A stretch of DNA of 63,860 nt, filler included. It is 4 parts of 4 records of this genome, joined end to end, with 100 filler letters (N's around TTAATTAATTAA, not from the genome) between each part and the next. Parts side by side here need not be neighbours in the genome. Positions count along the whole stretch, not along the records: positions 1 to 25,418 come from SRR2962707_2590; 3 more parts are not named here. The stretch is one strand, 5' to 3'. The notes under the pieces are model-generated. The model ran no database searches. It was not told where the DNA came from and was given only the letters and a program-made list of their open reading frames with translations. Shown here in pieces: positions 4,700 through 23,016 of this stretch. The position numbers and the translations under genes were made by a program. Numbering within the stretch: the stretch's first letter is position 1; every line of letters begins with the position of its first letter.

Positions 4700-5409
4700 G
4701 CATGCTACTCGAAGTCACCGGCCTGCACGCCTCCTACGGCGATTTCCGTGTTCTGCACGGCCTCGATTTCTCAGTGGAGAAGGGCGGCATCTCGACGCTT
4801 CTCGGCGCCAACGGTGCCGGCAAGACCACGACGCTCCGGGCCTTGTGTGGAATGATCAAGCGCTCCGGCAATATCCGCTTCGAAGGTGTCGATATCAGTG
4901 GCAAGGCGACCGAGGACATCGTTCGTCTGGGTGTGGCTCACGTTCCCGAAGGACGCGGGACCTTCACCGGTCTGACCACCGAAGAAAATCTGCAATGCGG
5001 CGCCATGACACGCCGCTCGCGTGCTGACATCGCGCGAGATCTCGAACAGGCCTACCATTGGTTTCCGCGGCTGCGCGAACGGCGCAACCAGCAGGCAGGC
5101 ACTCTTTCCGGCGGTGAACAGCAGATGCTGGCCATTGCCCGTGCGCTGATGCTGCGTCCGCGCCTGATGCTGCTTGACGAGCCGTCGTTCGGCCTCGCTC
5201 CGCTGATTGTCCAGGAAATGTTCTCGATCCTGCGCAAGGTCAATCAGGAGGAGCAGGTCTCCATGCTGATTGTCGAACAGAACGCCGGCGTGGTTCTCGA
5301 ACTCGCCGATACCGCCTTTGTTCTTGAGACCGGCGACATTGTGATGTCGGGAACCGCCGCGGAAGTCCGCGACAACGAAACCATTCGCGCCGCCTATCTC
5401 GGCTACTGA
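4696..5409 (+). CDS. livF: ABC transporter ATP-binding protein (LivF-like)
   Basis: GANGAGKTT, LSGGEQQMLAIARAL and LLDEPSFGLAP. Confidence 0.93.
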   Translation: MSMLLEVTGLHASYGDFRVLHGLDFSVEKGGISTLLGANGAGKTTTLRALCGMIKRSGNIRFEGVDISGKATEDIVRLGVAHVPEGRGTFTGLTTEENLQCGAMTRRSRADIARDLEQAYHWFPRLRERRNQQAGTLSGGEQQMLAIARALMLRPRLMLLDEPSFGLAPLIVQEMFSILRKVNQEEQVSMLIVEQNAGVVLELADTAFVLETGDIVMSGTAAEVRDNETIRAAYLGY

Positions 5410-5419
5410 GGGAGACACG

Positions 5420-6295
5420 ATGGAGCTTCTGGCACAACAACTCATCACCGGCATTGCAACCGGCGGAATCTATGCCTGCATGGCACTCGCCGTCGTGATG
5501 ATCTATCAGGCAATCCATCATCTGAATTTCGCCCAGGGCGAAATGGCGATGTTCTCCACTTTCGTCGCCTGGCAGATGCTGGCCTGGGGCGTTCCCTACT
5601 GGCTGGTGATCCCGTTGACGGTGGCGCTGTCTTTCGTCGGCGGCGTGGCAATCGAACGCCTCATCATCCGCCCGCTTGGCGATGCGCCGGTGCTCAGCCA
5701 TATCGTCGTGTTCATCGGCCTGTTTGCGGTTATCAACAGTCTGGCCGGGTTCATCTGGGATTTCACCATCAAGCCGTTCCCCAGCGCCTTTGGCGAAGGC
5801 TCACAGTTTGGTGGTCTGATCAGCAATCACCAGATTGGCATGATCGCGGTCACCATGACCGTGCTGGTGATGCTGTTCCTGTTCTTCCAGTACACACGGG
5901 TCGGCCTTGCGATGCGTGCCGCAGCAGAAAACCCGGCATCCGCCCGTCTGGTCGGAATCCGCGTTGGCTGGATGATCGCGCTCGGCTGGGGCATGGCGTC
6001 GGCAATCGGCGCTATCGCCGGAATTCTGATCGCACCAATTGTGTTTCTTGAACCGAACATGATGCTGTCGATCCTGCTTTATGGTTTCGCCGGAGCGGTG
6101 CTCGGCGGCCTGACCAGCCCAACCGGCGCCGTGTTCGGGGGCTTCATGGTCGGCATCATCGAAAACCTTGCGGGCACCTACATTCCGGAGATCGGCGGCG
6201 AACTCAAACTTCCCATAGCGCTGTTCCTGATCGTCACCGTTCTGGTGTTCAAACCCACCGGCCTGTTCGGCCGCACTGTCGTACAGAGGGTCTGA
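5420..6295 (+). CDS. livH: ABC transporter permease (LivH-like)
   Basis: Hydrophobic protein with LNFAQGE, TRVGLAMRAAAEN and KPTGLFG motifs. Confidence 0.92.
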   Translation: MELLAQQLITGIATGGIYACMALAVVMIYQAIHHLNFAQGEMAMFSTFVAWQMLAWGVPYWLVIPLTVALSFVGGVAIERLIIRPLGDAPVLSHIVVFIGLFAVINSLAGFIWDFTIKPFPSAFGEGSQFGGLISNHQIGMIAVTMTVLVMLFLFFQYTRVGLAMRAAAENPASARLVGIRVGWMIALGWGMASAIGAIAGILIAPIVFLEPNMMLSILLYGFAGAVLGGLTSPTGAVFGGFMVGIIENLAGTYIPEIGGELKLPIALFLIVTVLVFKPTGLFGRTVVQRV

Positions 6296-6298
6296 AAC

Positions 6299-7360
6299 AT
6301 GTCCGCAAACACCACCACCACCGGCGAGGGCCAGGCTGCAGCAAGTCCGGCTGCACCAAGCAAGGGCGTCAGCTTGCCTGAGCCCGCCGCAGCCACCAGC
6401 AACGCCAGGATCATGCGGACGGCGGGCGTTGTTCTGCTCGTAATCGGCATTGCAGCACCCTTCGTGGCCGGCAACTTCCTGATCTTCCAGCTCACCATGA
6501 TGTTGATCTATGCGATCGCCATTCTCGGGCTGAACATCCTGACCGGGATCAATGGCCAGTTTTCACTCGGTCATGGCGCCTTTTATGCGGTCGGCGCCTA
6601 CACAGCTGCCATCATGATGGACCAGTTTGGTATCGGCTATCTGTGGACACTGCCTGTGGCCGGAATAGTCTGCTTTATTGTTGGCTTTCTGTTCGGTCTG
6701 CCGGCGCTCCGCCTGGAAGGTGTTTACCTCGCGCTGGCCACCTTTGCGCTTGCCGTCGTCACGCCGCAGCTGTTCAAGCTGTCGCCGTTCGAGCACTGGA
6801 CCAGCGGCGTCATGGGCATTGTCATTTCCAAGCCTGAAGCCCCGTTCGGGCTGCCGCTCAATCCAGACCAATGGCTCTATTTCCTGACCTTTGCAGTGGG
6901 CCTGCTTGCTTATGTCTGTGCCAGAAATCTGGTTGGCAGCCGCACCGGGCGCGCCCTGATGGCAATCCGCGACAATCCGATTGCGGCCGGCTCAATGGGT
7001 GTGAACACGGCCCTTTTTAAATCTCTGGCATTTGGCGTCAGCGCTCTCTACACCGGCGTTGCTGGCGCGCTCGGCGCCATTGTCGTTCAATACATTTCCC
7101 CTGATTCCTTTACCTTCACGCTTTCCGTGGCTCTCGTGGTCGGCCTCGTCGTCGGCGGCGTCGGCTGGCTGCCCGGCGCACTGTTCGGCGGAGCCTTCAT
7201 CATGTTCGTCCCCAACATTGCCGAGGAGCTGTCCAAAGGCCTGTCGGGAGCGGTCTACGGCGCCATCATGATCCTCATGATGTACGCGATACCAACCGGG
7301 CTGGGAGGCCTGTTGAAGGCGGCGCTGACGGCGTTGTCCAAGCGGAGTAAGACTAGGTAG
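6299..7360 (+). CDS. livM: ABC transporter permease (LivM-like)
   Basis: GQFSLGHGAFYAVGAY, LRLEGVYLALAT and SRTGRALMAIRDN motifs. Confidence 0.92.
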   Translation: MSANTTTTGEGQAAASPAAPSKGVSLPEPAAATSNARIMRTAGVVLLVIGIAAPFVAGNFLIFQLTMMLIYAIAILGLNILTGINGQFSLGHGAFYAVGAYTAAIMMDQFGIGYLWTLPVAGIVCFIVGFLFGLPALRLEGVYLALATFALAVVTPQLFKLSPFEHWTSGVMGIVISKPEAPFGLPLNPDQWLYFLTFAVGLLAYVCARNLVGSRTGRALMAIRDNPIAAGSMGVNTALFKSLAFGVSALYTGVAGALGAIVVQYISPDSFTFTLSVALVVGLVVGGVGWLPGALFGGAFIMFVPNIAEELSKGLSGAVYGAIMILMMYAIPTGLGGLLKAALTALSKRSKTR

Positions 7361-7383
7361 TGCAACCTTAATGGGAGGAAACC

Positions 7384-8610
7384 ATGCACATGAGACGTAA
7401 CATACTGAAATATGTGGGGGCCGGACTTGTTGTAAGCTCCAGCCTGGCATTTCCTGCAATCGGCCAGGCAGCAGACATGCCCGGCGTCACCGACACCGAA
7501 ATCAAGATCGGCAATATCGCGCCCTACAGCGGACCGGCATCGGCCTACTCGACCATTGCCAAGACGATTTCCGCTTACTTCGACAAGGTCAACGAAGAGG
7601 GCGGGATCAACGGACGCAAGATCAACTTCCTGTCCTATGATGATGGCTACTCGCCGCCCAAGGCAGTGGAACAGGCGCGCAAGCTGGTCGAAAGCGATGA
7701 GGCGCTTTTGATCTTCCAGTCCCTCGGTACGCCATCGAATTCGGCCATTGAAAAATACATGAACATGAAGAAGGTGCCGCAGCTTCTCGTTGCGACAGGA
7801 GCCACCAAGTTTGGTGCTCCGAAAGACTTCCCGTGGACCATGGGTTGGCAGCCCAACTACCAGAGCGAAGGCATCATCTACGGTCGCTGGATAGCTACCG
7901 AAATGCCCGATGCAAAGATCGGCGTCATGTACCAGAACGACGATTTCGGCAAGGACGTGCTAGCTGGATTGAAGGTCGGACTTGGTGACAAGGCGGACAT
8001 GATCATCGCCGAGGCTTCCTATGAGGTTGCCGAGCCAGTGGTGGATTCGCAGGTCGTCAAACTCAAGGCCTCCGGCGCCAATGTGTTCGTCAACATTGCA
8101 ACACCGAAATTCGCCGCTCAGGGGATCAAGAAAGCCCATGAGATCGGCTGGGATGCAACCCAGATCGTAGCCAACGTGTCCAACTCGGTCGGCGCGGTTC
8201 TCACACCTGCCGGTCTGGAAGCCTCGACCGGTCTGATTTCGACTGCCTACCTCAAGGACATGCAGGATCCGCAGTGGGCGGACGATCCGGCCGTGAAAGA
8301 CTGGAACGCCTTCATGGACAAGTACTATCCGGACGGCAACAAGCTTTCGAGCTTCACCACCTACGGTTATTCGGTGGCACAGACCATGACGCATATCCTG
8401 GAACAGGCCGGCGACGACCTGACCCGTGAAAACGTGCTCAAGCAGGCTGCCAGCATGAAGGACGTCACGCTTCCTCTGTTCCTGCCCGGTATGTCGATGA
8501 ACACGTCGGAAACGGATTACTTCCCGATCGAACAGATGCAGTTGATGAAGTTCAACGGCGAGCGTTGGGAAAACTTCGGCGAAATCATCTCCGGTGAAGT
8601 TGGCGGCTGA
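7384..8610 (+). CDS. ABC substrate-binding protein (LivK / type I PBP fold; aliphatic/aromatic acid-binding subfamily)
   Basis: Signal peptide, GVTDTEIKIG, GGINGRKI and YDDGYSPPKAVEQARKL; last gene of the liv-like operon. Confidence 0.9.
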   Translation: MHMRRNILKYVGAGLVVSSSLAFPAIGQAADMPGVTDTEIKIGNIAPYSGPASAYSTIAKTISAYFDKVNEEGGINGRKINFLSYDDGYSPPKAVEQARKLVESDEALLIFQSLGTPSNSAIEKYMNMKKVPQLLVATGATKFGAPKDFPWTMGWQPNYQSEGIIYGRWIATEMPDAKIGVMYQNDDFGKDVLAGLKVGLGDKADMIIAEASYEVAEPVVDSQVVKLKASGANVFVNIATPKFAAQGIKKAHEIGWDATQIVANVSNSVGAVLTPAGLEASTGLISTAYLKDMQDPQWADDPAVKDWNAFMDKYYPDGNKLSSFTTYGYSVAQTMTHILEQAGDDLTRENVLKQAASMKDVTLPLFLPGMSMNTSETDYFPIEQMQLMKFNGERWENFGEIISGEVGG

Positions 8611-8636
8611 TCCGCTTTCAAAAGACCGAACTCAAA

Positions 8637-8669
8637 GCGCCGGGCTCCAGCAATGGGATCCGGCGTTTT
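8637..8669 (+). terminator. Putative intrinsic terminator
   Basis: GCGCCGGGCTCC-AGCAAT-GGGATCCGGCGT imperfect hairpin followed by Ts, just after the SBP stop. Confidence 0.5.
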
Positions 8670-8762
8670 ACGTGCAGGAGTTCTTGGCGAAATGGTCAAG
8701 CAGTCCGGGCCTCACATCTGCCCGTCTCGGGGAACCATGTGCAGCCATGGACCTTGAGTGAT

Positions 8763-9704
8763 TCATCCCATGGTGATGCCGTTCGCGAAAACATAGACTG
8801 CATAAAGTGATGTCGTGCCACAGATGAACAGCCGATTGCGCTTTGCGCCACCAAAAGTCAGATTGGCGACGATCTCGGGAATACGGATCTTGCCGATCAG
8901 CGTGCCGTCGGGATCGTAGCAATGCACGCCGTCAAAGGCGCTGGTCCAGATGCGGCCTTCGCGATCGACGCGGAAGCCGTCAAAGAAACCGGCGGTGCAG
9001 GATGCAAAAACGTCCCCGCCGCTGAGGGATCCGTAGTCTCCCACGTCGAAACGGCGAATATGGGCCGGTCCGCCCTGCAGGTGGGTTGCACCCGTATCGG
9101 AGATGTAGAGATGTTTCTCGTCCGGTGAGAACGCCAGCCCATTGGGTTGAACGAAATCATCCGTCATCTGGTGCCGGGGCCCGTCCGCCGGATCAATCCG
9201 GTAGACATGATTGCCTGTCAGCTCCGGAGTGCAAATGTCACCTTCATAATCTGTGAGAATGCCGTAGCTGGGATCTGAAAACCAGATCGACCCGTCCGAA
9301 TGCACAACCACGTCATTGGGCGAGTTGAGCCGCTTGCCGCCAAAGTTGTCAGCCAGCACGGTAATCGTGCCGTCATGTTCCGTGCGTGTCACACGACGGG
9401 TCAGATGCTCGCAGGTGACAAGCCTCCCCTGGCGGTCCACGGTGTTGCCGTTTGAATTGTTGGATGGCGACCGGAACACCGATGTCGAGCCGTCGGTTTC
9501 GTCCCACCGCATCATCCGGTTGTTGGGAATATCCGACCAGACCAGGTAGCGTCCGGCGGCAAACCACGCCGGCCCCTCACACCACCGCGCGCCGGTCCAC
9601 AGGCGTTCGACATGGATATGCGGAGCAAACAGGGCTGTAAAACGCGGATCAATCACCTCAAAGCCGGTCCCATCCAATGGGCCGATTACCGGATCTGTCG
9701 TCAT
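8763..9704 (-). CDS. SMP-30/gluconolactonase/LRE family protein
   Basis: WCEGPAW, SNGNTVDRQGRLVTCEH, LNSPNDVVV, PNGLAFSPDE and FDGFRVD motifs; RBS GGAGGA before the ATG at 9704. Confidence 0.92.
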   Translation of the reverse strand: MTTDPVIGPLDGTGFEVIDPRFTALFAPHIHVERLWTGARWCEGPAWFAAGRYLVWSDIPNNRMMRWDETDGSTSVFRSPSNNSNGNTVDRQGRLVTCEHLTRRVTRTEHDGTITVLADNFGGKRLNSPNDVVVHSDGSIWFSDPSYGILTDYEGDICTPELTGNHVYRIDPADGPRHQMTDDFVQPNGLAFSPDEKHLYISDTGATHLQGGPAHIRRFDVGDYGSLSGGDVFASCTAGFFDGFRVDREGRIWTSAFDGVHCYDPDGTLIGKIRIPEIVANLTFGGAKRNRLFICGTTSLYAVYVFANGITMG

Positions 9705-10097
9705 GTCGCATTCCTCCAATTCGCGGATCGCCACCCGCACTGCCGCGGGGGCAAGGCCTGGGCAGCCAATTTGGGACGTATGTCCAATTCCATGGTGAGT
9801 TTACCAGAGGCCTTGCCGGAGGAAAGAGCTCAATCCTGAGGGGGAGGATTACGTTGGAGCCTTATTCATCGCCTGACTGCACAGAGAACCTTGTTCAACC
9901 CAATCGATGTTGTCAAACTCCGGCGGCGGTCTTCGGCGGCCCAGGAGAACTGAATGTCAACGGCGAGCCCGCAATCCGGGCTGTCTTCCCTTTATAGCCT
10001 TCCGGGTGATTGTCGAATGTTGAGATTGTACAATTGCCACGAGCGTTGACATTTGCCTAGTATGAATACATTGTCGGTCCAGACAAGGGAGGCATCT

Positions 10098-11027
10098 GTG
10101 CGCAACGAACGTTCAACCGAAGACATCGCCATGGGAATCCGCAGACGGGTGTTCGAACACTCGATGCGCAACAATGGCGGTTATCTTAGCCAGGCCTGTT
10201 CAGCGGCTGAACAATTGGCGTTTTTGTACAATGAGGGCCTCAATCTCGGCGAGCCGGTGTTGCCCGCCGTCCCCAAGCCCTTTGCCGGCGTGCCGTCCGC
10301 CAACAATCCCGATTATGTTACCGGTGCCGGCTACAACGGCCCGTTCGAGCCGCAGTATGACCGCCTGTTCATCGCGCCGGCGCACTATGCGCTGGTCGCC
10401 TATGCGACACTGATCGAAACCGGCCGCATGGATGCTGAAGGCCTGGAAATGTTCAACAAGGACGGCTCGTCCGTGGAAATGATAGGCGCCGAACATTCGC
10501 CCGGCATGGAAGTCCACAACGGCACTTTGGGCATAGGCCTGTCGACCGGTGCAGGCCTCGCCTACGGCCGCAAGCGCCGCGGCGAGAGCGGCCAGACCTG
10601 CGTGTTCATGTCCGATGGCGAAGTTCAGGAAGGTCAGACCTGGGAAGCGGTCCAGGCCGCAGCCCACCACGGCATCGACAATCTCTGGGCGCTGATGGAC
10701 GTCAATGACCAGCAGTGTGATGGCGCGATGGATTCGGTCATGGAAGTCCGTGACATCGCCACCAAGTTCCGCGCCTTTGGCGCTGTCTGTGTCGAGATCG
10801 ATGCACATGACCTCGACGCCATGCGTCAGGCGAAGGCCGAGCCGCATGAAGGCCAGCCGCTGATCATTCTGGCACGCTCATCGCCGACAAAGGGCATGAG
10901 CTTCCTGCAGAAACGCTTTCCCCGTCTGCACTATGTGCGCTTCAAATCCGAAGAGGAGCGGGCAGAGATGAACATCTCGATTGCCGCCGAACTCGGTATC
11001 GACCCAATCGAACTGGAGACGCACTGA
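10098..11027 (+). CDS. Split transketolase, N-terminal ThDP-binding subunit (atypical active site)
   Basis: DRLFIAPAH, NGTLGIGLS and ThDP motif SDGEVQEGQTWEA...DVNDQQCDG. GTG start at 10098 follows GGGAGG. Confidence 0.9.
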   Translation: MRNERSTEDIAMGIRRRVFEHSMRNNGGYLSQACSAAEQLAFLYNEGLNLGEPVLPAVPKPFAGVPSANNPDYVTGAGYNGPFEPQYDRLFIAPAHYALVAYATLIETGRMDAEGLEMFNKDGSSVEMIGAEHSPGMEVHNGTLGIGLSTGAGLAYGRKRRGESGQTCVFMSDGEVQEGQTWEAVQAAAHHGIDNLWALMDVNDQQCDGAMDSVMEVRDIATKFRAFGAVCVEIDAHDLDAMRQAKAEPHEGQPLIILARSSPTKGMSFLQKRFPRLHYVRFKSEEERAEMNISIAAELGIDPIELETH

Positions 11028-12031
11028 TGGTTGAGATGGTCAGTCGCCCTTACGCCTCCGCATTCGAGGCCTTCGCGGTCAAGAATCCCGACGTCCTTTG
11101 CCTGTCCGCCGACCTGACCTCGTCCTGCGAGATCGACGGCTTCCGTGACCGGCATCCGGACCAGTTCCTGTCGCTCGGCATGGCCGAGCAGAACATGATG
11201 AGCTTTGCCGGCGGGCTTGGACTTGCCGGCTACCGGCCGTTCCTGCATTCCTTCGGCGTGTTCCTCTATCGCCGTCCTTACGATCAGTTGATGGCTTCCG
11301 TTGCCTATCCGCGCCGCAAGGTCCGGCTGATGGGTTTCCTGCCGGGCATCACCACGCCCGGCGGCATGACACACCAGGCCATTGAAGACATCGCCGTGAT
11401 GCGGTCGATTCCCAACATGTCGATCCTTGAGACCGGTGACGCGACCGAAGTCGAGAGCATCTGCGAAGCGGCCGACTCGATTGATGGTCCGGTTTACTGC
11501 CGGGTGCTGCGCGGCTCGGTGCCGCGGCTGTTTGACAGCCCGATCAAGGTCGGCGAGATGCGTGAGCTTTCCAGCGGCGCCGATGTTCTGGTGGTGACCT
11601 CAGGCATCGCCACCGAAGAAGCACTGCGCGCCCGCGACGCGCTGTCAAATGCTGGTGTTTCGATCAGGCACCTGCACATCCATACCATCAAGCCGTTCAA
11701 CGATCAGGCACTGCTCGACCATATTGGCTCGGTCTCGAAGGGTGTCGTGGTGCTTGAAAACCATGTCATCACAGGCGGCGTCGGGTCGCTGGTTGCCGAG
11801 ATCATGGCCGACAATGGTGTTGGCAAACCGCTGGTGCGACTCGGCCTCAACGACACCTACGCCCATGGCGGCTCGCGCGGCTATCTGATGAAGCATTACG
11901 GTCTCGACGCCGGTGCGCTGGTGCGCGGCATTGAGCGGGTCATGGGAATAGAGACCGGTATCGACGAGGAAGCTCTCGCCAGTGCCCGGGTTGATGCTGT
12001 GCACTCCGCCGTCAAGGCCGAGGCTCTCTAG
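11027..12031 (+). CDS. Split transketolase, C-terminal (pyrimidine-binding plus C-terminal) subunit
   Basis: ADL, GMAEQNMM, RRPYDQ, THQAIEDIAVMRSIPNM, TIKPF and ENH..GG.GS; translationally coupled to the N-terminal subunit (TGATG). Confidence 0.92.
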   Translation: MVEMVSRPYASAFEAFAVKNPDVLCLSADLTSSCEIDGFRDRHPDQFLSLGMAEQNMMSFAGGLGLAGYRPFLHSFGVFLYRRPYDQLMASVAYPRRKVRLMGFLPGITTPGGMTHQAIEDIAVMRSIPNMSILETGDATEVESICEAADSIDGPVYCRVLRGSVPRLFDSPIKVGEMRELSSGADVLVVTSGIATEEALRARDALSNAGVSIRHLHIHTIKPFNDQALLDHIGSVSKGVVVLENHVITGGVGSLVAEIMADNGVGKPLVRLGLNDTYAHGGSRGYLMKHYGLDAGALVRGIERVMGIETGIDEEALASARVDAVHSAVKAEAL

Positions 12032-12033
12032 AG

Positions 12034-13167
12034 ATGGCTGATGACACCCGGTTCCGTGTCCGCTACCGGCTGCTTGCGGACAGCCCGCAAGAGGCCGATC
12101 AACGTGCCCTCGGCATCGCACTGGAGCAGACCGTCGAGATCCCCGGCGACATCGTCCCGGCGGGCTATATCGCCGATGAGATCGTCGGCCAGATCGAGGG
12201 CGTTCGTCCACTGTCCGGCAATGCCTATGAGGCAGAGATCTCCTACAGCCCTGATAGCGCCGGTGACGAGGTCATCCAGCTGATCAACGTGATCTTTGGC
12301 AATTCCTCGATACAGCAGAATATCCGGGTCACCGGTTTCGAGCCGGGAAAGGTGATCCGGGAACGGTTCACCGGACCACGTTTTGGCATCGAAGGCGTTC
12401 GCGCCCGTTCGGGAAGAGCCAAAGGCGGCCTGATTTCGCCGGTGATCAAGCCGCAAGGTTCGAGCGTCAAGCAGCTTGCTGATATTGCTTACAGCTGCAC
12501 TCTGGGCGGCGCCGACATCATCAAGGATGACCACGGCCTCGCCAATCAGACATTTGCGCCGTTCGCAGACCGTGTAAACGTGATCAGCGAAGCAGTCGCA
12601 GACGCCAATGCAAAATCCGGCAATTCGGCGCTCTACTTCGTCAATGTGACCGGCCACACAGGTTCGCCCGTGGACGAAGCATTCAAGGCCAAGGAAGCCG
12701 GTGCCGGAGGCGTGTTGCTGATGCCCGGCCTGATGGGCTTCGGCGTGGTGCAGGCACTGGCGCGCGACCCGTCGTTTGATTTGCCGATCATGACCCACCC
12801 GAGCTTCACCGGCCCCTATGTGCTCACCCCCGAAACCGGGGTGGCGCACGCCATCATGTATGGTGTGTTCCAGCGTCTCGCAGGATCGGATATTTCGGTG
12901 TTCCCGAATGTCGGCGGCCGCTTCGGCTTCAGCGTCGATGAATGCCTTTCCATCGCCCAAGCCTGTCGTGATCCGGATGGGATCGGCCGGGCCATGATGC
13001 CGAGCCCGGGCGGCGGCATGAGCGTCGAACGCGCCGGCGACATGGTCTCGATGTATGGCGAAGACGTTGTCTTCCTGCTCGGAGGAAGCCTGCTGCGGGC
13101 CGGCGACGCTATCGGCGATGCAGTCCGCGCCATGCGTGACGCAATCGACAGTTTGAATACTGATTGA
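12034..13167 (+). CDS. RuBisCO-like protein (form IV RLP, KDDH type; probable 5-methylthioribulose-1-P / 5-deoxyribulose-1-P 1,3-isomerase)
   Basis: EQTVE, FGNSS, GPRFGIEG, IKPQG, GADIIKDDHGL (carbamylated-Lys motif with His in place of Glu), MTHPSFTG, FPNVGGRF, PSPGGG and LLGGS. Confidence 0.93.
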   Translation: MADDTRFRVRYRLLADSPQEADQRALGIALEQTVEIPGDIVPAGYIADEIVGQIEGVRPLSGNAYEAEISYSPDSAGDEVIQLINVIFGNSSIQQNIRVTGFEPGKVIRERFTGPRFGIEGVRARSGRAKGGLISPVIKPQGSSVKQLADIAYSCTLGGADIIKDDHGLANQTFAPFADRVNVISEAVADANAKSGNSALYFVNVTGHTGSPVDEAFKAKEAGAGGVLLMPGLMGFGVVQALARDPSFDLPIMTHPSFTGPYVLTPETGVAHAIMYGVFQRLAGSDISVFPNVGGRFGFSVDECLSIAQACRDPDGIGRAMMPSPGGGMSVERAGDMVSMYGEDVVFLLGGSLLRAGDAIGDAVRAMRDAIDSLNTD

Positions 13168-13195: not shown

Positions 13196-13225
13196 GGGGT
13201 TCGGTCGAAAGACCGGCCTTTTTTT
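13196..13225 (+). terminator. Intrinsic terminator of the transketolase-RLP operon
   Basis: GGTTCGGTC-GAAA-GACCGGCC followed by T7. Confidence 0.75.
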
Positions 13226-13248
13226 GGTCTGGGTACTGGAGGCCGCAC

Positions 13249-13279
13249 AAAAAAGGCCGCATCCGAGAATGCGGCCTTT
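13249..13279 (-). terminator. Intrinsic terminator of the sugar ABC operon
   Basis: AAAGGCCGCAT-CCGAGA-ATGCGGCCTTT hairpin with a preceding A run that reads as a T tract on the minus strand. Confidence 0.8.
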
Positions 13280-13303: not shown

Positions 13304-14359
13304 TTAGCGTGCAGGCAGCGGCATCCAGTCGGTCATGGCAACATCGGCATGAGCGAACTGAGGCATACTGGCCGACAGCTCTTCCATGTTCTTGATGTCG
13401 TTTTCAACCAGGAAGGACTGCGTGATCAGGGTTGGTGGCACCACGACCTGGGCATCCACATCACCACCGGTGAGCATGATAGCCAGAGCACGCACCGAGA
13501 CTTCACCGACAACGGCCGGATTGGTGGCAACAGTCGCTGCCCAGGCGCTGTCAGGCTCGCGCATTGCCGAGATGTCGGCGGTTGATACGTCAGCTGAATA
13601 GATCTTCACGTCCTGCGACAGACCGGCTTCATCAACAGCAATTTTCACGCCCTTGGCAAATTCGTCAAAGGGAGCAAAGAACACCGAGATGTCGGGATTT
13701 GCCTGCAGCACCGAACGGGCCTGGTTGGCGTTGGAGTTGGCGATTGGGTTGTCGAGCGTGCCCATCTGCGCCTTTTCGACGACGCCCGGATTGGCTGCCT
13801 TGAACTCTTCCCAGGCAACATGACGGCGGTCTAGCGGCGCAATGCCCGGCACATAGACATAGCCGGCATTCCACTCGGTGCCATTGTCCTTGGCCGCCTG
13901 TTCGAGCGCCAGTTTACCAAGCAGATAGTCCGACTGTTCGATCTGCGGAATTGCCGGGTTTTCAACATTCACGTCGAATGCGACGACCTTGATGCCCGCA
14001 TCGATGGCGCGCTGTGCGGCTTCCTGCATGGATTCGGTCAGGCCGTGCTGGATGATGATGCCATCAACGCCAAGCGCGATTGCCTGATCCACCATGTCTG
14101 CCTGCAAGGCGGCATCCTGACGGCTGTCGAGCACGCGCAGATCAACACCGAGTGCCGCGGCCTGCTTCTCAACGCCCGAAAGATAGGCCTGGAAGAAGTC
14201 GCCGGTGGAGAGATAGCGCACCAGCGCGATCTTCACGTCGCCGGGATTGTCCAGCGGTGCTGGCATGTCGGCAGCCTGCGCAAAGCCTGCGGGAAGGGTG
14301 ACGGCCGCGGCCGCAAGGCCTGCGAACAGGGCAAGTGCTTTTCTGCGTATGATTTTCAT
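13304..14359 (-). CDS. Sugar ABC transporter substrate-binding protein (candidate methylthioribose/deoxyribose binder)
   Basis: Signal peptide and RbsB-like type I PBP motifs (QADMVDQAIALGVDGIII, AGIKVVAFD). The ligand is inferred from adjacent mtnK/mtnA. Confidence 0.88.
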   Translation of the reverse strand: MKIIRRKALALFAGLAAAAVTLPAGFAQAADMPAPLDNPGDVKIALVRYLSTGDFFQAYLSGVEKQAAALGVDLRVLDSRQDAALQADMVDQAIALGVDGIIIQHGLTESMQEAAQRAIDAGIKVVAFDVNVENPAIPQIEQSDYLLGKLALEQAAKDNGTEWNAGYVYVPGIAPLDRRHVAWEEFKAANPGVVEKAQMGTLDNPIANSNANQARSVLQANPDISVFFAPFDEFAKGVKIAVDEAGLSQDVKIYSADVSTADISAMREPDSAWAATVATNPAVVGEVSVRALAIMLTGGDVDAQVVVPPTLITQSFLVENDIKNMEELSASMPQFAHADVAMTDWMPLPAR

Positions 14360-14391
14360 GCTGTTTTCCTCCGTTAAAGTATTGGTCTTGC

Positions 14392-15462
14392 TTAGTGGCC
14401 GCCGGCTTTTCTGGCCGACAGCGAAAAGGTGAAGACAAGGGCGATGACAAGCACCAGGCCCTTGATGAAATCCTGGGTGTAGTAGGGTGCGTTCATCATC
14501 GTCAGGCCCTGCAGCAGGATGCCGACGAACAGCGCGCCCATGGATGTGCCGAAAGCGTTCGGCTTGGCAGCACCCAGCACTGCGAAGCCGATCAACGAGG
14601 CGGCAACCGCATCAAGCAGCAGATTGGTGCCCGAGGCGATGTCACCGCGGCCCAGACGGGCAGCAAGCAGCATGCCGGCTATCGAGGCCAGGACGCCGGA
14701 GATCATGTAAGCCATGATCTTGTATTTGTTGACATTGGTTCCGGTCAGGCTCGCAGCCCGCTCGTTCGAGCCGATGGCATACATCAGACGGCCGTGGCGG
14801 GTGAGCTCAAGGAAAATCCAGACCAGAATGCCAATCGCAACAAGGAAGATGACCGGGGCCGGGAGCAGGTTTTCCAGCATGAAATCGAACCGGTGACGGC
14901 CAAGCTGCAGGAACAGCGGCGAAAAGGTGCCTTCGGCGGTGGTGCCGTCGGGCAGCGTCATGCCCATGGCGATCGAGCGGCCTTCGGTGGGAATCCGTTG
15001 CAGGCCAACCAGCAGGAACATCATGCCAAGGGTGGCCAGGAGATCAGGGACCTTGGTCTTGACGATCAGCAGGCCGTTGATCAGACCGATGACGGCGCCC
15101 ATGACGAGGCAGGCAACAATTGCGACGAAGGCGGATTGTTCCAGCACCACCATCATATAGGCCGCCAGCATCATCGACGAGGTGGCGACCGAACCGATCG
15201 ACAGGTCGAACCCGCCGACCACCAGCGTACAGGTGACGCCGAGCGCCAGAATGCCGGTAATGGCCACCGACTGGAAAATGAACACGGCACTGCGCGGGCC
15301 GGCAAAACCGTTGGCAAAGACCGAGAAGAAAATTACCAAGCCAAGCAGCAACGCCAAAAAGCCGTAACGGATAGCAATGTCGAGCAGGCCTGCTGATCGT
15401 GGCTGTGGTTTGCCTGCTCCAGGAGTGGTGCTGCCGGAAATGTCTGTCTGGTCCATGCTCAT
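14392..15462 (-). CDS. Sugar ABC transporter permease (RbsC-like)
   Basis: GGFDLSIGS, PDLLATLG and GRLMYAIGSNERAA motifs. Confidence 0.92.
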   Translation of the reverse strand: MSMDQTDISGSTTPGAGKPQPRSAGLLDIAIRYGFLALLLGLVIFFSVFANGFAGPRSAVFIFQSVAITGILALGVTCTLVVGGFDLSIGSVATSSMMLAAYMMVVLEQSAFVAIVACLVMGAVIGLINGLLIVKTKVPDLLATLGMMFLLVGLQRIPTEGRSIAMGMTLPDGTTAEGTFSPLFLQLGRHRFDFMLENLLPAPVIFLVAIGILVWIFLELTRHGRLMYAIGSNERAASLTGTNVNKYKIMAYMISGVLASIAGMLLAARLGRGDIASGTNLLLDAVAASLIGFAVLGAAKPNAFGTSMGALFVGILLQGLTMMNAPYYTQDFIKGLVLVIALVFTFSLSARKAGGH

Positions 15463-16991
15463 GCGTGTGCTGTCCTTGCGGCGCTGCCGTTATCTGCCGG
15501 CATGGCCCCGGTTACTGCGGTCAGGATCTCATTGAGATCCACGTTCTCGTTTCTGAATTCTGCCGAGACCGAGTGCTCGGTCATGACGATGATACGGTCG
15601 GCGACTTCAAGTGCCTCGTCGAGTTCGGAGACGAACACCAGCGTCGCGCGGTTTTTCGCGGTTTCGCGGATCTTGCGGCCAATGTCTCTGCGGGCGCGGA
15701 TATCGACGCCCTGGAACGGCTCGTCGAGCAGCAACAGCCGGCATTCCTCGGCCAGCCAGCGCGCCAGCATGACTTTCTGCTGGTTGCCGCCCGACAGCGT
15801 GCCGATGGAATCGGTCTCGCCCTGGCAGACAATCGACAACGCCTCGATCATCTCGTTGGCGGTGCGGCGCTCGTCCGAACGCTTGATGAACGACAGGTTC
15901 GAATAGCGCGCCAGGAAGGGCAGGGTGATGTTGCGGGTGATGTCGAAATCGGCAACCACGGCATTGTTGGCGCGGTCTTTCGAAGACATGAACACGCCAC
16001 TCTTGATGGCGGCTTGCGGACTTGTCGGCGCATGGTCCTGGCCATCGATCCGGATTCGCCCGCTTGCCGGACGCCCCAGCCCGAACAGGCTTTGTGCGAA
16101 AGCGCTCTTGCCGCTGCCGAGCAGGCCGGTCACTGCGACAATTTCATTTTCGCACAGATCGAAATCGAATGCTGCGCTGTTGGGAAGCAGTCGCAGATCG
16201 CTGACCTCGAGCACGCGCTTGCCGGGAGCAGGAATGGCGATGTCGACATCGGTCATCCGGTGGCCGAGCATCGCATTGACCGCGCCCTCGTAGTCGAGGG
16301 CTTCGCCTTCAAAAACGCCGGAGATTTCACCGTCGCGCATCGACACGATCCGGTCGGCGATACGGCGGATATCGGACATGCGGTGCGAGATATAAAGCAC
16401 AGCCACACCCTTGGCCGACAGTCGTTCGATCAGCAGAAACAACCGTTCGGCTTCCGAGGCTGACAGCGACGATGTTGGTTCGTCGAGAATGAGCAGTTGC
16501 GGATCGTGCGCCATGGCACGCGCGATGGCGATCAGCTGCCGGTCTGCAACGCCGAGTTCTGCAACGGATTGCCGGACATTGAGTGACAAGCCCATCTGGC
16601 TGGCAATGCGTTCCGCTTCGGCATAGTTTTGCTTGCGCTTGAGGAAGAAGCCGTAGCCCGGTTCTGCCAGCCGGTCGATCAGCAGGTTGGAGGCGACATC
16701 GAGATCAGGGATCACCCCATCATTGATGTTCTGGTGGACAGTTACCACACCGGCACGGATGGCTGCCGACGGGCTTGATGGTCGGAAATCCTTGCCAAGC
16801 AGGCTGATGGAGCCAGAGTCGAGTGCGTGCACACCGCTAAGGATTTTGACCAGAGTGGACTTGCCCGCGCCATTGGCGCCCATCAGCACAGTGACGGATC
16901 CCGCAGGCAGCGACAGGTTGAGCTGTTTGAGGACGCGATTGTCCCCGAACGACTTATCCACGCCCCGCAGATCGCAAAGAGTTCCGTTCAT
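15459..16991 (-). CDS. Sugar ABC transporter ATP-binding protein (RbsA-like, tandem NBDs)
   Basis: GANGAGKS, LILDEPTSSLS, YISHRM, LSGGNQQKV and DEPFQGVD. Confidence 0.93.
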   Translation of the reverse strand: MNGTLCDLRGVDKSFGDNRVLKQLNLSLPAGSVTVLMGANGAGKSTLVKILSGVHALDSGSISLLGKDFRPSSPSAAIRAGVVTVHQNINDGVIPDLDVASNLLIDRLAEPGYGFFLKRKQNYAEAERIASQMGLSLNVRQSVAELGVADRQLIAIARAMAHDPQLLILDEPTSSLSASEAERLFLLIERLSAKGVAVLYISHRMSDIRRIADRIVSMRDGEISGVFEGEALDYEGAVNAMLGHRMTDVDIAIPAPGKRVLEVSDLRLLPNSAAFDFDLCENEIVAVTGLLGSGKSAFAQSLFGLGRPASGRIRIDGQDHAPTSPQAAIKSGVFMSSKDRANNAVVADFDITRNITLPFLARYSNLSFIKRSDERRTANEMIEALSIVCQGETDSIGTLSGGNQQKVMLARWLAEECRLLLLDEPFQGVDIRARRDIGRKIRETAKNRATLVFVSELDEALEVADRIIVMTEHSVSAEFRNENVDLNEILTAVTGAMPADNGSAARTAHA

Positions 16992-17024
16992 GCTGTCCTC
17001 CCGCTATGATGAAAACAGCAGCAG

Positions 17025-17053
17025 TGACAAAAGTCAATACGTATTGACAAATG
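17025..17053. promoter_or_regulatory. Putative SorC-family operator in the ABC/mtnK divergent promoter
   Basis: TGACAAAAGTCAATACGTATTGACAAATG. It contains the perfect palindrome GTCAATACGTATTGAC and matches the reverse complement of 20505-20533 at 24 of 29 positions. Confidence 0.7.
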
Positions 17054-17114
17054 ATTGATACCGACACTAGGCTTGGTCAACGAGCAGCCTGGACTGTCAA
17101 CTGGGAGGATAGTT

Positions 17115-19510: not shown

Positions 19511-20482
19511 TCAGGCGAGGTCCATCATCGCGGCTGCGCAACTCTGGTTCGTCACCACATGGGTGGCGTATCCACCCCGGATGGCGGCAACGGCAGCCGG
19601 CACGCGTTCCTCGCCCACCGACACCAGGATGCCCATGTCGCGGTGGCGCAATTCTTCGAGCTCGATGCCCATCATGCGGTCATCGAGGGGGCCGCTGACC
19701 GGGTCGCCCTTGGCATCGATAAAGCGTCCGCACATCACCCCGACCGCACCTTGCGCGATATAGTCTTCCAGCTCCTGCTGCGTGGCGACGCCGCTGGACG
19801 CGACATGACTGTCGGGATTGCACGAGCCGACGGCAAACAGCGTCTTGTTGCAGTCTCTGATGGCGTCGAGCTGCTTGGCGATCAGCGATTCCGCGCGGAG
19901 TGTGGCCGCGATTTCGGCGGTGCTCAGGATTGCCGGTACATGCAGGTTGATGCACTTGGCAGAGAATTTCCGCGCCACGTTGGAGGAGCAAACGTCAGCC
20001 GAGAAGCCGTAGGGCGTGGCCATCGAACCAACCAGTTGCAGCACCGTGAGATCGGGAATGGTGGTCTGCTCAAGCCGTTCGGCAACATCGTAGATGGTCT
20101 TGCCCCAGGCAACGCCGAGCCGGTCGCCCGGCTCAAGCAGGCTTGGTAGCCAGTCCGCCGCTCCGCGTATGATGCGGCTTGCGTGGTCGTCCTGGCCGCC
20201 CGTGCCATCGGGGAGGATATAGGCAGCCTTGAGGCCGAAACGGTCGCGCAGATCCAGCGCCGCGCGGTGCGTGTTGAAAGCTTCAGGCGACAGTTTGGTG
20301 TGGATGTAGCCGCGTTCCCGCGCTTCCTGCAGGTAATTCACCACGGTCGCCCGCGAAACCAGCAACTTGTTGGCTATCTCGCTTTGATTGAGTCCGTCGT
20401 GGTAATAAAGCCAAGCGGTTTCGACGACGATATCCTCGCCGCTGATTTGTTTGGTAGAGCGCCTGGTAGAGTTCTGAGGCAT
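19511..20482 (-). CDS. SorC/DeoR/LsrR-family sugar-binding transcriptional regulator
   Basis: AWLYYHDGLNQSEIA...VSRATVVNYLQEARERG HTH and a sugar-binding domain (GVAWGKT, GAVG..GRFIDA.G). Confidence 0.93.
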   Translation of the reverse strand: MPQNSTRRSTKQISGEDIVVETAWLYYHDGLNQSEIANKLLVSRATVVNYLQEARERGYIHTKLSPEAFNTHRAALDLRDRFGLKAAYILPDGTGGQDDHASRIIRGAADWLPSLLEPGDRLGVAWGKTIYDVAERLEQTTIPDLTVLQLVGSMATPYGFSADVCSSNVARKFSAKCINLHVPAILSTAEIAATLRAESLIAKQLDAIRDCNKTLFAVGSCNPDSHVASSGVATQQELEDYIAQGAVGVMCGRFIDAKGDPVSGPLDDRMMGIELEELRHRDMGILVSVGEERVPAAVAAIRGGYATHVVTNQSCAAAMMDLA

Positions 20483-20504: not shown

Positions 20505-20537
20505 CATTTGACAATAGACAATGACTTTTGTCAAATG
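20505..20537. promoter_or_regulatory. Putative SorC-family operator between the regulator and the aldolase/SDR gene
   Basis: Inverted repeat CATTTGACAA-N13-TTGTCAAATG. It contains TGACTTTTGTCA, the exact reverse complement of 17025-17036. Confidence 0.7.
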
Positions 20538-20566
20538 AAGCAAGTTCACATGGGCAGGAGACGGTA

Positions 20567-22639
20567 ATGCGGCAAAACAGATGGAATGACAAGGAAGCCC
20601 AGGCGCGGGTTGATGCGGCGGGCTCTGATCCTGCAGACCAGACGCTGGCTTTGAGGGTCTACTCGTCCCGCATTATCGGCTCCGATCCGGACCTTGTCAT
20701 GCATGGCGGCGGCAATACCTCGGTCAAGACCCAGCGCAAGGATCTGTTTGGCGTCATGCAGAAAGTGCTGCACGTCAAGGGTAGCGGATGGGACCTCGAT
20801 ACGCTGGAAGCCCCGGGCCTGCCCGGCGTCCGGCTCGCGCCTCTGCTCGAGATGCGCAAGCTCGATGCCCTGTCCGACGAGGACATGGTCAACATGCAGC
20901 GTTCCAACCTGCTCGATTCGAGCGCGCCCAACCCGTCGGTTGAAACCTTGCTGCACGCTTTCCTGCCGCACACTTTTGTCGATCATACTCACGCGACGGC
21001 GTTTCTGGCGCTGGCAAACCTGCCGAATGCCGAAGCCGCGATCCGCGAGATCTTCGGTGACCGGTTGGCGGTTGTCCCCTATATCATGCCCGGTTTTGCA
21101 TTGGCGAAGAAGGCAGCCGAGGTGTTTGACGCAAACCCTGATTGCGAAGGTCTGATCCTGCTCAAGCACGGCCATTTCACTTTCGGTGACACTGCGCGGG
21201 AAAGTTATGACAAGGTCATCGAGCACACCAACATGGTCGAGGACTGGTTGGAGGCACGTGAGAATGGCCGCAAGTTTGATCTCACCGTAAACCGGAACCG
21301 CTCGCTGCCCGATTCCGATCTGGCAGCTTCCGTCCTGCCGGTTCTGCGCGGCGCCATTGGGCGTTTGCGCGGTGAGCATCACAAGGCTGCGCCGCGGCCT
21401 GTGGTGATGGACGTCAGGGTCGGCGAGGTAATTGACGCCTTTCTGAACCGCGCCGATCTGGAAGAGCTTTCGCAACGCGGCGTCGCTTCACCTGATCATG
21501 TCATCCGTACCAAGGGCCGCATGCTGGTTCTCGGCAAGGATGATCTCGCCAAGGGACGCGCCGGGATCGAAGCCAAGATCACGGAATTCGCCCAGGCCTA
21601 CCGCGCCATGTTCGACGCCCAGTTCAAGCGCGTAGGCGGCGGCAAGACCATGCTTGAGCCGCACCCTTGCGTGGCCTGGGTTGAAGGTCTCGGCATCATC
21701 GGCATCGGCAAGGATGCCTCTGCCGCTTCTGCAGCCGCGGATATCGCCGAGCAGACTGTCGAGGTGATGACGCTTGGTGAAGCTGCCGGCGGTTTTCATC
21801 CGATCGGCCCCGATGATCTGTTCGACTTGGAATACTGGTCGCTGGAACAGGCCAAGCTGGCCAAGGCTGCAGCCAAGCCCTTTACAGGACAGGTTGTCGC
21901 GGTGACCGGCGGCGCCGGCGCCATCGGGCTTGCCACTGCGAAGGCGTTTGCGCGTGAGGGCGCTGCGGTGGCGCTGATCGATTTCAATCCTGAAGCCTGC
22001 AAGGCCGCTGCCGCCTCGATCGGTCCAAACTGCCTCGCAGTGGTGGCCGATCTAACCGCAAAGGGTTCCGCCGACAAGGCGGTGGCCGAAATCGTCGACC
22101 GCTTCGGCGGGCTCGACGTGCTCGTCTCCAATGCAGGCGCTGCCATTCAGGGCATGCTGCTCGATCTCGACGAGGAGACGCTGCGCTCAAGCTTTGAGCT
22201 TAATTTCTTCTCGCATCTGGCTATGGCGCGGGCTGCGGCACAGGTGTTTGCGGCGCAGGACCATGGCGGGCAAATGCTGTTCAATGTGTCAAAGCAGGCG
22301 GTCAATCCCGGTAAGGGGTTCGGTGCGTACGGGCTTCCCAAGGCCACAACGTTCTTCCTCGTCAGGCAGCTGGCGCTTGAGCTCGGCGCTTCCGGTGTCC
22401 GGGTCAATGGCGTCAATGCCGACCGCATCCGCTCTGGCCTGCTGACCGATGACTTCATCAAGTCGCGTGCCGAGGCGAGGGGCGTTTCCGCATCCGACTA
22501 CATGGCGGGCAACCTGCTCAAGGCCGAGGTCGAAGCGCACCATGTTGCTGACGCTTTCATGGCGCTCGCCAGGTCAGAGCGGACAACAGCCCATGTGATC
22601 ACCGTGGACGGCGGCAACATCGAGGCAGCCCTACGTTAG
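20567..22639 (+). CDS. Bifunctional class II aldolase / short-chain dehydrogenase (rhamnulose-1-P aldolase/SDR-like fusion)
   Basis: HGGGNTSVK, PSVETLLHA..DHTHA and KHGHFTFG (class II aldolase); C-terminal TGGAGAIG, VSNAG and YGLPK (SDR). Confidence 0.92.
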   Translation: MRQNRWNDKEAQARVDAAGSDPADQTLALRVYSSRIIGSDPDLVMHGGGNTSVKTQRKDLFGVMQKVLHVKGSGWDLDTLEAPGLPGVRLAPLLEMRKLDALSDEDMVNMQRSNLLDSSAPNPSVETLLHAFLPHTFVDHTHATAFLALANLPNAEAAIREIFGDRLAVVPYIMPGFALAKKAAEVFDANPDCEGLILLKHGHFTFGDTARESYDKVIEHTNMVEDWLEARENGRKFDLTVNRNRSLPDSDLAASVLPVLRGAIGRLRGEHHKAAPRPVVMDVRVGEVIDAFLNRADLEELSQRGVASPDHVIRTKGRMLVLGKDDLAKGRAGIEAKITEFAQAYRAMFDAQFKRVGGGKTMLEPHPCVAWVEGLGIIGIGKDASAASAAADIAEQTVEVMTLGEAAGGFHPIGPDDLFDLEYWSLEQAKLAKAAAKPFTGQVVAVTGGAGAIGLATAKAFAREGAAVALIDFNPEACKAAAASIGPNCLAVVADLTAKGSADKAVAEIVDRFGGLDVLVSNAGAAIQGMLLDLDEETLRSSFELNFFSHLAMARAAAQVFAAQDHGGQMLFNVSKQAVNPGKGFGAYGLPKATTFFLVRQLALELGASGVRVNGVNADRIRSGLLTDDFIKSRAEARGVSASDYMAGNLLKAEVEAHHVADAFMALARSERTTAHVITVDGGNIEAALR

Positions 22640-22960: not shown

Positions 22961-23016
22961 GAATTGCATTGCTTTGCACGCGGAAAAATGATCTTTTTGC
23001 ATAAGGGAGAAAGCAT

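Follow-up and report, generated by a model that had tools for sequence, protein, structure and literature searches.

The stretch of DNA analysed here (the window; 63,860 nucleotides in four parts from four records of one genome, joined end to end with filler, of which positions 1 to 25,418 come from SRR2962707_2590) carries two adjoining genes for a transketolase-like enzyme divided over two chains, directly upstream of a gene for a RuBisCO-like protein (RLP). The residues, phylogeny and gene linkage of the pair partly support its assignment to a new subfamily of transketolase-like thiamine diphosphate (ThDP) enzymes with a putative role in sulfur-sugar breakdown. The N subunit (10098..11027, + strand; 309 amino acids) holds the diphosphate-binding PP domain, and the C subunit (11027..12031, + strand; 334 amino acids) holds the Pyr and C-terminal domains. 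GTG 10098 is most likely the start of the N subunit; it is preceded by the Shine-Dalgarno sequence AAGGGAGG at 10085-10092 with a spacing of 6 nt, in agreement with the location and start given to the pair in a first-pass annotation of this DNA. The mechanical open reading frame (ORF) begins at TTG 10053, and N-subunit residues are counted here from the GTG. The TGA of the N-subunit gene and the ATG of the C-subunit gene share one base (TGATG), and the C-subunit stop is separated from the RLP ATG by 2 nt; the three genes are coupled by this overlap and spacer.

Pfam models identify all three transketolase domains, spread over the two chains: Transketolase_N in the N subunit (62 bits, covering profile positions 54-241 only), and Transket_pyr (87 bits) and Transketolase_C (66 bits) in the C subunit. 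The closest PDB sequences found with phmmer are 6yak for the N subunit (E 3e-33) and 6yaj for the C subunit (E 8e-56), from the split transketolase of Carboxydothermus hydrogenoformans, which has the same layout, with PP on one chain and Pyr plus C on the other (PMC7661550; this and the other PMC papers are cited from the excerpts available). Chains of 1-deoxy-xylulose-5-phosphate synthase (DXS) form the second-best PDB group for the C subunit. For an AlphaFold2 (AF2) monomer model of the N subunit (pLDDT 86, pTM 0.89) the best structural match is 6yak (Z 30.9 and 32% identity, with an rmsd of 2.7 over 266 residues; VIA), followed by other transketolases (Z 26-28), pyruvate dehydrogenase E1 (22.8) and DXS (22.5). 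The pair is predicted to form an alpha2beta2 ThDP enzyme of the transketolase fold. Neither subunit came near any NCBIfam transketolase or DXS cut-off, the best transketolase model being NF004559 (N subunit 133 bits and C subunit 184 bits against a cut-off of 488, for a model of full-length proteins of 627 positions), and the cut-off of the DXS model TIGR00204 (466) was not reached by the C subunit, at 162 bits. No NCBIfam model named for the apulose-4-phosphate transketolase AptAB or the sulfo-transketolase SqwGH was among the matches.

Substrate site and its conservation

Residues were compared with those of Escherichia coli TktA. Both tktA and dxs were taken from the K-12 record, and His26, His66, His100, His261, Arg358, Ser385, Glu411, His461, Asp469, His473 and Arg520 were verified on the tktA sequence; we take the yeast equivalents to be His30, His69, His103, His263, Arg359, Ser386, Glu418, His469, Asp477, His481 and Arg528. 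Alignments were made with phmmer against 6yak and 6yaj, with MAFFT for a diverse set of 80 sequences (the window protein, 77 database homologues of 255-340 residues, TktA and Dxs) and with hhalign, profile to profile, for 12 variant against 13 canonical transketolase sequences (probability 100, E 3e-70). A MAFFT alignment of close homologues with E. coli put His26 inside an insertion, and the His26 register was taken from the diverse MAFFT and hhalign alignments, which are mutually concordant. Conservation was counted in a scan of one genome per species, which yielded 297 stretches with relatives; locus counts refer throughout to the best 80 of these 297, which the scan retained at 78-98% identity; over both subunits, identity to the window is 73-99%. 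The C-subunit set had 78 matches, one of which was left out for coverage <85%, leaving 77.

Four positions of the substrate site differ from canonical transketolases. Residues 27-32 of the N subunit read GGYLSQ, in which Tyr29 (codon 10182..10184, + strand) replaces His26 (yeast His30) in the phmmer, MAFFT and hhalign alignments alike; Tyr is found here in 80/80 loci (motif RNNGGYLSQACSAAEQLA) and in every fused form described below. Residues 126-131 read VEMIGA and belong to the loop Glu127-Met128-Ile129-Gly-Ala-Glu-His133 (10476..10496, + strand), which is invariant in 80/80 loci and replaces (L/P)(Q/G)GHP. The His100 column (yeast His103) is occupied by Ile129 in the diverse MAFFT and hhalign alignments, by Met128 in others and by a gap between the two in the phmmer alignment with 6yak, and none of the alignments gives a His there. 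Confidence of the AF2 model is lowest in this altered loop (block pLDDT 49 at residues 121-130). Leu105 of the C subunit (codon 11339..11341, + strand) replaces the phosphate-site His461 (yeast His469), with 'fLpg' opposite 'tHag' of 6yaj; its context MGFLPG is invariant in close relatives, and FLP recurs in all fused forms. Finally, TPGGMTHQ spans residues 110-117 of the C subunit and includes Pro111-Gly112-Gly-Met-Thr-His116 (11357..11374, + strand), where Pro111-Gly112 stands opposite Glu468-Asp469, Gly112 replaces Asp469 (yeast Asp477), and His116 keeps His473 (yeast His481). An insertion particular to this subfamily, some 27 residues long (approximately residues 48-84; 10239..10349, approximate, + strand) and a gap relative to canonical transketolases in hhalign, sits after the helix that bears Tyr29 and is mostly coil in the AF2 model (block pLDDT 68-87).

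Other residues of the site are retained. The ThDP/metal motif SDG-X28-N (residues 172-203; 10611..10706, + strand) is intact, with Asp173 and Asn203 corresponding to Asp155 and Asn185, and so is the cofactor-activating Glu54 of GMAEQ in the C subunit (codon 11186..11188, + strand; Glu411; 77/77 loci), as the first-pass annotation had held. His96, in APAH (residues 93-96; codon 10383..10385, + strand), is the equivalent of His66 (yeast His69) in phmmer, MAFFT and hhalign, and His278 (codon 10929..10931, + strand) that of His261 (yeast His263) in MAFFT and hhalign; each is present in 80/80 loci. The donor-site histidines 66, 261 and 473 are thus kept, with His26 changed to Tyr29 and His100 to Met128 or Ile129. 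In the phosphate site Ser33 (Ser385) and Arg162 (Arg520) are kept, His461 is Leu105, and Arg7 is very probably the equivalent of Arg358, the MAFFT register there being off by one. All four motif readings of the first-pass annotation (GGYLSQ, APAH, VEMIGA and TPGGMTHQ) are present where it placed them, and the changes it listed at His26, His100 and Asp469 stand. Its list also contained APAH and the motif ending in THQ; both keep their His, so fewer residues are lost than the list suggests, and the change of His461 to Leu105 was absent from that list. Judged by alignment, the substitutions fall on substrate-recognition residues and leave the catalytic machinery intact. Tyr29, Gln32, Tyr97, Glu127 and Gln206 are conserved polar residues near the altered loop, and our guess is that the proton transfers needed in the reaction proposed below would be made by some of these.

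In yeast transketolase the C1 hydroxyl of the donor is contacted by His103 and the C2 hydroxyl of the acceptor by Asp477; the latter (Asp469 in E. coli) lines a site that holds not only the acceptor but also the donor's aldose part. The first-pass annotation took loss of the Asp to suggest an unusual or absent aldose acceptor; because of this double role, the loss alone is no argument for an absent acceptor. DXS, which does use glyceraldehyde-3-phosphate, keeps this residue. A structure of the yeast enzyme with erythrose-4-phosphate assigns recognition to seven residues (His30, His263, Arg359, Ser386, His469, Asp477 and Arg528), of which the two arginines and His469 hold the phosphate (PMC3352088, as excerpted); three of these seven are altered here, and His100 additionally. 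Its excerpted text has PMC7661550 naming His66, His100, Gly114 and His473 as donor-binding residues in transketolase. The C. hydrogenoformans enzyme shares the ThDP motif, the cofactor Glu and the equivalents of His66, His261 and His473 with the window pair, but is an ordinary transketolase with GH, GHP, TH and EDG where the window pair has GY, MI, FL and PG, together with the insertion of about 27 residues. That the pair is likewise an ordinary xylulose-5-phosphate:ribose-5-phosphate transketolase, a paralogue tolerating its substitutions, is very improbable. In its favour, the pair retains the transketolase fold, the ThDP motif, the catalytic Glu and, with the very probable Arg7 counted, three residues of the phosphate site. 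The altered recognition residues (three of seven in the excerpts of PMC3352088, plus His100) and scores far under the cut-off (133 and 184 bits; cut-off 488) speak against it, and a canonical enzyme is already present in 5/5 related genomes (see below).

DXS offers a further comparison. It belongs to the same superfamily, depends on ThDP, consists of a single chain, decarboxylates pyruvate, and makes or binds a 1-deoxy-ketose-5-phosphate. In the alignments E. coli Dxs has Phe in the His100 column and retains the equivalents of His26, His66, His261, Asp469, His473 and Arg520; the window enzyme therefore resembles DXS in the C1 pocket and departs from both families at His26, His461 and Asp469. 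The hydrophobic residue that had been proposed for the His103 position is confirmed as Met128 or Ile129, like the Phe of DXS. According to the excerpts of PMC7661550, DXS enzymes consistently carry Phe at this position, and a Geobacillus transketolase makes more use of pyruvate when mutated to H100F or H100L. The pair could on this basis be a DXS-like carboligase that decarboxylates pyruvate or another 2-oxo acid and attaches a unit of two or more carbons to an aldehyde such as glyceraldehyde-3-phosphate or one released by the neighbouring aldolase. Besides the hydrophobic residue at the His100 position, the 162 bits of the C subunit on TIGR00204, the rank of DXS chains among its PDB matches and the acceptance of pyruvate by some split transketolases (PMC13663882, from an excerpt) are in its favour. 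We nevertheless consider a DXS-like reaction improbable, since DXS keeps the equivalents of His26 and Asp469 replaced here, the AF2 model is nearer to transketolases (Z 26-31) than to DXS (Z 22.5), the cluster is without a source of 2-oxo acid, and the fusion to an isomerase whose relatives make ketose-5-phosphates (see below) better suits an enzyme that consumes a ketose.

Many Rhodobacterales and Hyphomicrobiales are represented in the 80 loci, among them Maritalea, Pannonibacter, Paracoccus and, nearest to the window, Hoeflea. The residues listed above are identical throughout, in 80/80 N subunits and 77/77 C subunits, so the pattern is not due to chance, and both subunits are better conserved than the neighbouring RLP (51-93% identity) or MtnK (51-96%). 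It is barely credible that the pair is a decayed, non-catalytic remnant or a scaffold. Several catalytic-site histidines are lost, as in such a remnant, but identity is 73-99% over 80 genomes of several alphaproteobacterial families, above that of RLP or MtnK; the cofactor-binding residues are invariant; and the signature is conserved out to diatoms. The same residue pattern recurs in relatives at 34-55% identity. Among 1.84 billion cluster representatives, 6086 matched at E <= 0.001 and 93 at E <= 1e-30. A FastTree phylogeny was built from 75 sequences, five of the 80 having been left out because one of three key columns was a gap in them. It groups all 33 sequences with Tyr in a single clade of 38 leaves (support 0.75) within the split transketolases, and this clade contains no sequence with His at all three key columns. 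The window protein belongs to a subclade of 27 (support 0.94), and the His100 position varies among the subclades (Ile/Val, Ser or Ala). As the Tyr-bearing sequences form a distinct clade, the suggestion of a new ThDP subfamily made in the first-pass annotation holds.

The RuBisCO-like protein and the gene cluster

The RLP gene (form IV; 12034..13167, + strand; Pfam RuBisCO_large) encodes a protein with 3qfw as best PDB match (243 bits), which we take to be a Rhodopseudomonas palustris RLP; it scores under every NCBIfam cut-off, that of the MtnW enolase included. An RLP match at E <= 1e-20 was found in 17 of 301 sampled alphaproteobacterial genomes. In two of the 17 (60% and 89% identity) the transketolase pair precedes the RLP gene; in 13 (35-39% identity in this search, 33-38% by tblastn) a Cupin_2 protein is encoded just downstream, 13/13 by tblastn (in a Pfam scan six of ten downstream ORFs were cupins and the other four were wrong frames), and two distant matches were left out of the neighbour comparison. 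A homologue of the RLP-linked cupin was found in 0/80 transketolase loci. The transketolase pair occupies the place of the cupin that consumes the RLP product. RLPs of the two groups share 60 of 102 positions invariant in the cupin-linked group and have the motifs KDDHG, HP..G, GGRF, P.P.GGM and L.GG.LL in common. The only partner known to us for RLPs of this type is the cupin that acts in the methylthioadenosine (MTA)-isoprenoid shunt. In that shunt, as the excerpts of PMC5893883 and PMC6302742 describe it, the RLP stands next to the cupin and converts methylthioribulose-1-phosphate into 1-methylthio-xylulose-5-phosphate and 1-methylthio-ribulose-5-phosphate (3:1), and the cupin strips the methylthio group to give 1-deoxy-xylulose-5-phosphate (DXP); 1-methylthio-xylulose-5-phosphate is the cupin substrate in both Rhodospirillum rubrum and R. 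palustris (PMC5893883, as excerpted). This cupin, a methylsulfurylase, resembles the window pair in its place beside a related RLP and, by inference, in its substrate; it differs in having an unrelated fold and in carrying out, per the same excerpts (PMC5893883), a glutathione-dependent desulfurization to DXP with neither C-C cleavage nor ThDP.

Fusions tie the same proteins together. P0001 (730 amino acids) joins RLP and N subunit, P0156 (1130 amino acids; from the diatom Conticribra weissflogii) joins RLP, N and C subunits, and P0003, P0006 and P0010 are N-C fusions. These proteins, from other lineages, keep the signature residues at 46-55% identity, P0003 with Lys for Arg7 and Gln for His96, and their source names read only 'transketolase'. 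A pair that travels with RLP, or is fused to it, points to an undescribed step in sulfur-sugar breakdown. The first-pass annotation had proposed a 1-deoxy or 1-thio ketose donor, and this gains support from the downstream RLP, a relative of the isomerase that produces 1-methylthio-xylulose-5-phosphate, and from the existence of RLP-transketolase fusions. In a literature search, conducted mostly outside subscription journals, we found nothing linking a transketolase-type enzyme to RLP or to methylthioribose metabolism.

Downstream of RLP lies a ribose-type ABC importer on the - strand (13304..16991), with ORFs for a binding protein (13304-14359), a permease (14392-15462) and a double ATPase (15459-16991). 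It is followed by mtnK (17055-18377, + strand; TIGR01767, 484 bits, cut-off 275), mtnA (18380-19483, + strand; TIGR00512, 435 bits, cut-off 279), a SorC/DeoR-type regulator (19511..20482, - strand; Pfam Sugar-bind, 197 bits) and, divergent from the regulator, a fused class II aldolase/short-chain dehydrogenase of 703 amino acids (20528..22639, + strand; NF006192, 886 bits, cut-off 639). Neighbours were counted over the 80 loci with tblastn (E <= 1e-20, >=60% of the query): the C subunit is present in 78, RLP in 75 (directly downstream), MtnA in 67, MtnK in 65, the regulator in 60, and the binding protein, permease and double ATPase of the importer in 64, 69 and 68, respectively, among which a few ABC matches at ~30% identity probably belong to other ABC systems. 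Both loci without the C subunit (L006 and L071) end at a contig end, and so do three of the five without RLP (L006, L017 and L071); the remaining two, L068 and L077, have room for it. The aldolase-dehydrogenase fusion is present in at least 38/80 loci (24 at full length), a lower bound because the other 14 run off the fetched stretch. In 26/80 loci the binding-protein gene is separated from the transketolase or RLP genes by a gene for an RbsD/FucU-type sugar mutarotase (L025:9405-9899 and L016:13056-13571, plus 24 others). The window is without one, and only 136 bases separate its RLP and binding-protein genes.

Two described routes share components with this cluster. In the dihydroxyacetone phosphate (DHAP) shunt (MtnK/MtnP, MtnA and the class II aldolase Ald2), MtnK, MtnA and a class II aldolase domain, Aldolase_II in the window, are common to both; the shunt is without RLP or a transketolase-like pair, and the window aldolase is fused to a short-chain dehydrogenase. 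With the MTA-isoprenoid shunt the window shares MtnA; by the identity and motifs given above, its RLP may or may not be of the R. rubrum/R. palustris RLP1 (DeepYkr) type. Five genomes carrying the cluster (G001-G005, from loci L007, L011, L021, L041 and L029) were examined for salvage genes. A canonical full-length transketolase is also present in 5/5 (445-469 bits), so the pair is an extra enzyme. The classical methionine salvage pathway was not found in these five: MtnB over cut-off, ARD dioxygenase, MTAP over cut-off and MtnN over cut-off each gave 0/5. Because no classical salvage was found and the cluster contains an importer, these data suggest that it serves the uptake of external methylthioribose or 5-deoxyribose.

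Proposed reaction

We rate at about an even chance the proposal that the pair is a ThDP lyase or transferase that cleaves the RLP product, 1-methylthio-xylulose-5-phosphate or DXP, into glyceraldehyde-3-phosphate and a C2 unit; on this proposal it would no longer handle an ordinary 1-hydroxy ketose. From the residues observed and their conservation, together with the linked genes and the fusion proteins, we infer a substrate, a cleaved bond and a fate of the C2 unit as follows. The neighbouring ABC system would import methylthioribose, and probably 5-deoxyribose too; MtnK would phosphorylate the sugar, MtnA would isomerize it to the ribulose-1-phosphate form, and RLP would convert this to 1-methylthio-D-xylulose-5-phosphate (or, from 5-deoxyribose, to 1-deoxy-D-xylulose-5-phosphate). 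Arg7, Ser33 and Arg162 of the largely retained phosphate site would hold the 5-phosphate, while Met128/Ile129 and Tyr29 would line the pocket that receives the methylthio or methyl group at C1. Cleavage of the C2-C3 bond would release glyceraldehyde-3-phosphate and leave the C2 unit on ThDP.

Given cleavage, three fates of the C2 unit may be considered. Loss of methanethiol to yield acetyl-ThDP, by analogy with the loss of water in phosphoketolase, comes just short of an even chance; release after protonation, in the form of 2-(methylthio)acetaldehyde or acetaldehyde, is somewhat less probable than that; and transfer to an acceptor aldehyde is fairly improbable. In phosphoketolase and sulfoacetaldehyde acetyltransferase a C2-ThDP intermediate loses a beta substituent (water and sulfite, respectively) to give acetyl-ThDP; these enzymes offer a precedent for methanethiol loss, and the likeness is mechanistic only, no membership of either family being claimed. 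Elimination of methanethiol is slightly favoured because the pair displaces an enzyme that frees the methylthio group, because release of 2-(methylthio)acetaldehyde would duplicate a possible role of the aldolase fusion, and because ThDP enzymes with beta-elimination are known. The fully specified version, a 'methanethiol-forming ketolase' in which the C2-ThDP intermediate expels methanethiol and the resulting acetyl-ThDP yields acetate or acetyl phosphate, is by the same analogy a tentative and rather unlikely possibility.

Several observations weigh against cleavage of the RLP product. As Asp469, which DXS keeps, and His461 are both lost, the triose-phosphate part would have to be bound differently than in known enzymes. 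His133 (AEHSPG), named in the first-pass annotation as a possible substitute for a lost residue, is near the altered loop and might reach the active site; it is invariant in the 80 close relatives, whereas remoter members of the clade have Arg, Tyr, Phe, Thr or Gly instead, and it aligns to a variable column of canonical transketolases in hhalign. The clustered aldolase-dehydrogenase fusion could already dispose of methylthioribulose-1-phosphate, which leaves the need for a second route unexplained. Transketolase-linked RLPs are only 33-39% identical to cupin-linked ones and depart from them at 42 of the latter's 102 invariant positions, so their product may differ. Lastly, L068 and L077 (2/80 loci) carry the pair with all signature residues but no RLP, nor was RLP found elsewhere in their genomes with this RLP query at E <= 1e-10. 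The pair is therefore not bound to RLP, and its substrate can arise without RLP or differs from the RLP product.

The clusters of these two loci (L068:398-10605 and L077:2152-13633) encode a SorC regulator, a 221-amino-acid class II aldolase, a Zn-dehydrogenase, an FGGY kinase, a molybdopterin oxidoreductase and a TauA/NMT1-type ABC system, and L077 also has a sulfatase. Since they have a separate class II aldolase and Zn-dehydrogenase where the window has an aldolase and a dehydrogenase fused, an aldolase-type protein and a dehydrogenase may be the constant partners of the pair. This opens a further alternative, which we hold to be unlikely: that the pair acts on a different ketose phosphate fed by several routes, of which the RLP link is only one, with the class II aldolase-type protein, dehydrogenase and SorC regulator as constant partners and, perhaps, a pentulose phosphate that an FGGY kinase forms from an oxidized, possibly sulfur-bearing polyol as the substrate. 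Such a substrate is in keeping with the composition of the L068 and L077 clusters, in genomes where no RLP was found, and with the fused class II aldolase and dehydrogenase of the window. Loci of that kind are only 2/80, however, against 75/80 with RLP directly downstream, and RLP-transketolase fusions exist. Moreover, the FGGY kinase could make a pentulose-5-phosphate directly, so the RLP-less loci are compatible with the same substrate class; a kinase-made 1-substituted pentulose-5-phosphate would partly merge this alternative with cleavage of the RLP product.

A ThDP enzyme with a rebuilt donor pocket stands in the cupin's place, with relatives in 297 candidate stretches and in diatom transcripts. 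If cleavage of the RLP product is correct, it would add a new reaction to the recycling of S-adenosylmethionine by-products and bear on marine sulfur cycling via methanethiol; it would also provide a natural transketolase scaffold for 1-deoxy and 1-thio ketoses, so far sought by engineers through mutation of His100. If methanethiol is indeed formed, the pathway would offer an oxygen- and glutathione-independent recovery of all methylthioribose carbon and sulfur, widespread in marine and freshwater bacteria and fused to RLP in diatoms.

Regulatory sites and flanking regions

Between the convergent RLP and binding-protein genes, 13214-13279 contains a pair of GC-rich inverted repeats that overlap each other and have A and T runs on their flanks, probably a two-way terminator. 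Related AT-rich sites occur in all three promoter regions of the cluster (10008-10034, 17020-17053 and 20505-20537): a near-palindrome CATTTGACAATAGACA / TGACTTTTGTCAAATG, TGACAAAAGTCAAT...ATTGACAAATG just before mtnK, and ATTGTCGAATG...ATTGTACAATTG before the transketolase gene. They are probably the SorC operator. Four of the eight window matches to CATTTGACAA (one mismatch allowed) fall in these sites; over the whole window CATTTGACAA is not enriched (8 matches against 6.0 expected).

Upstream of the pair, 3908-9740 encodes a branched-chain-amino-acid-type ABC system (two ATPases, two permeases and a binding protein) and an SMP-30/gluconolactonase-like gene (8763-9740), which is placed outside the cluster because it lies beside the pair in only 1/80 loci. 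Right after the cluster, G+C content falls from about 0.60 to 0.53-0.55 over 23000-37000, and gene fragments appear. Encoded here are a TorD-like chaperone (23017-23622), the N-terminal 486 amino acids of a molybdoenzyme of the formate-dehydrogenase type (24006-25466) and a 210-amino-acid N-terminal ClpB piece (25463-26095). This region looks like a rearrangement or an inserted island.

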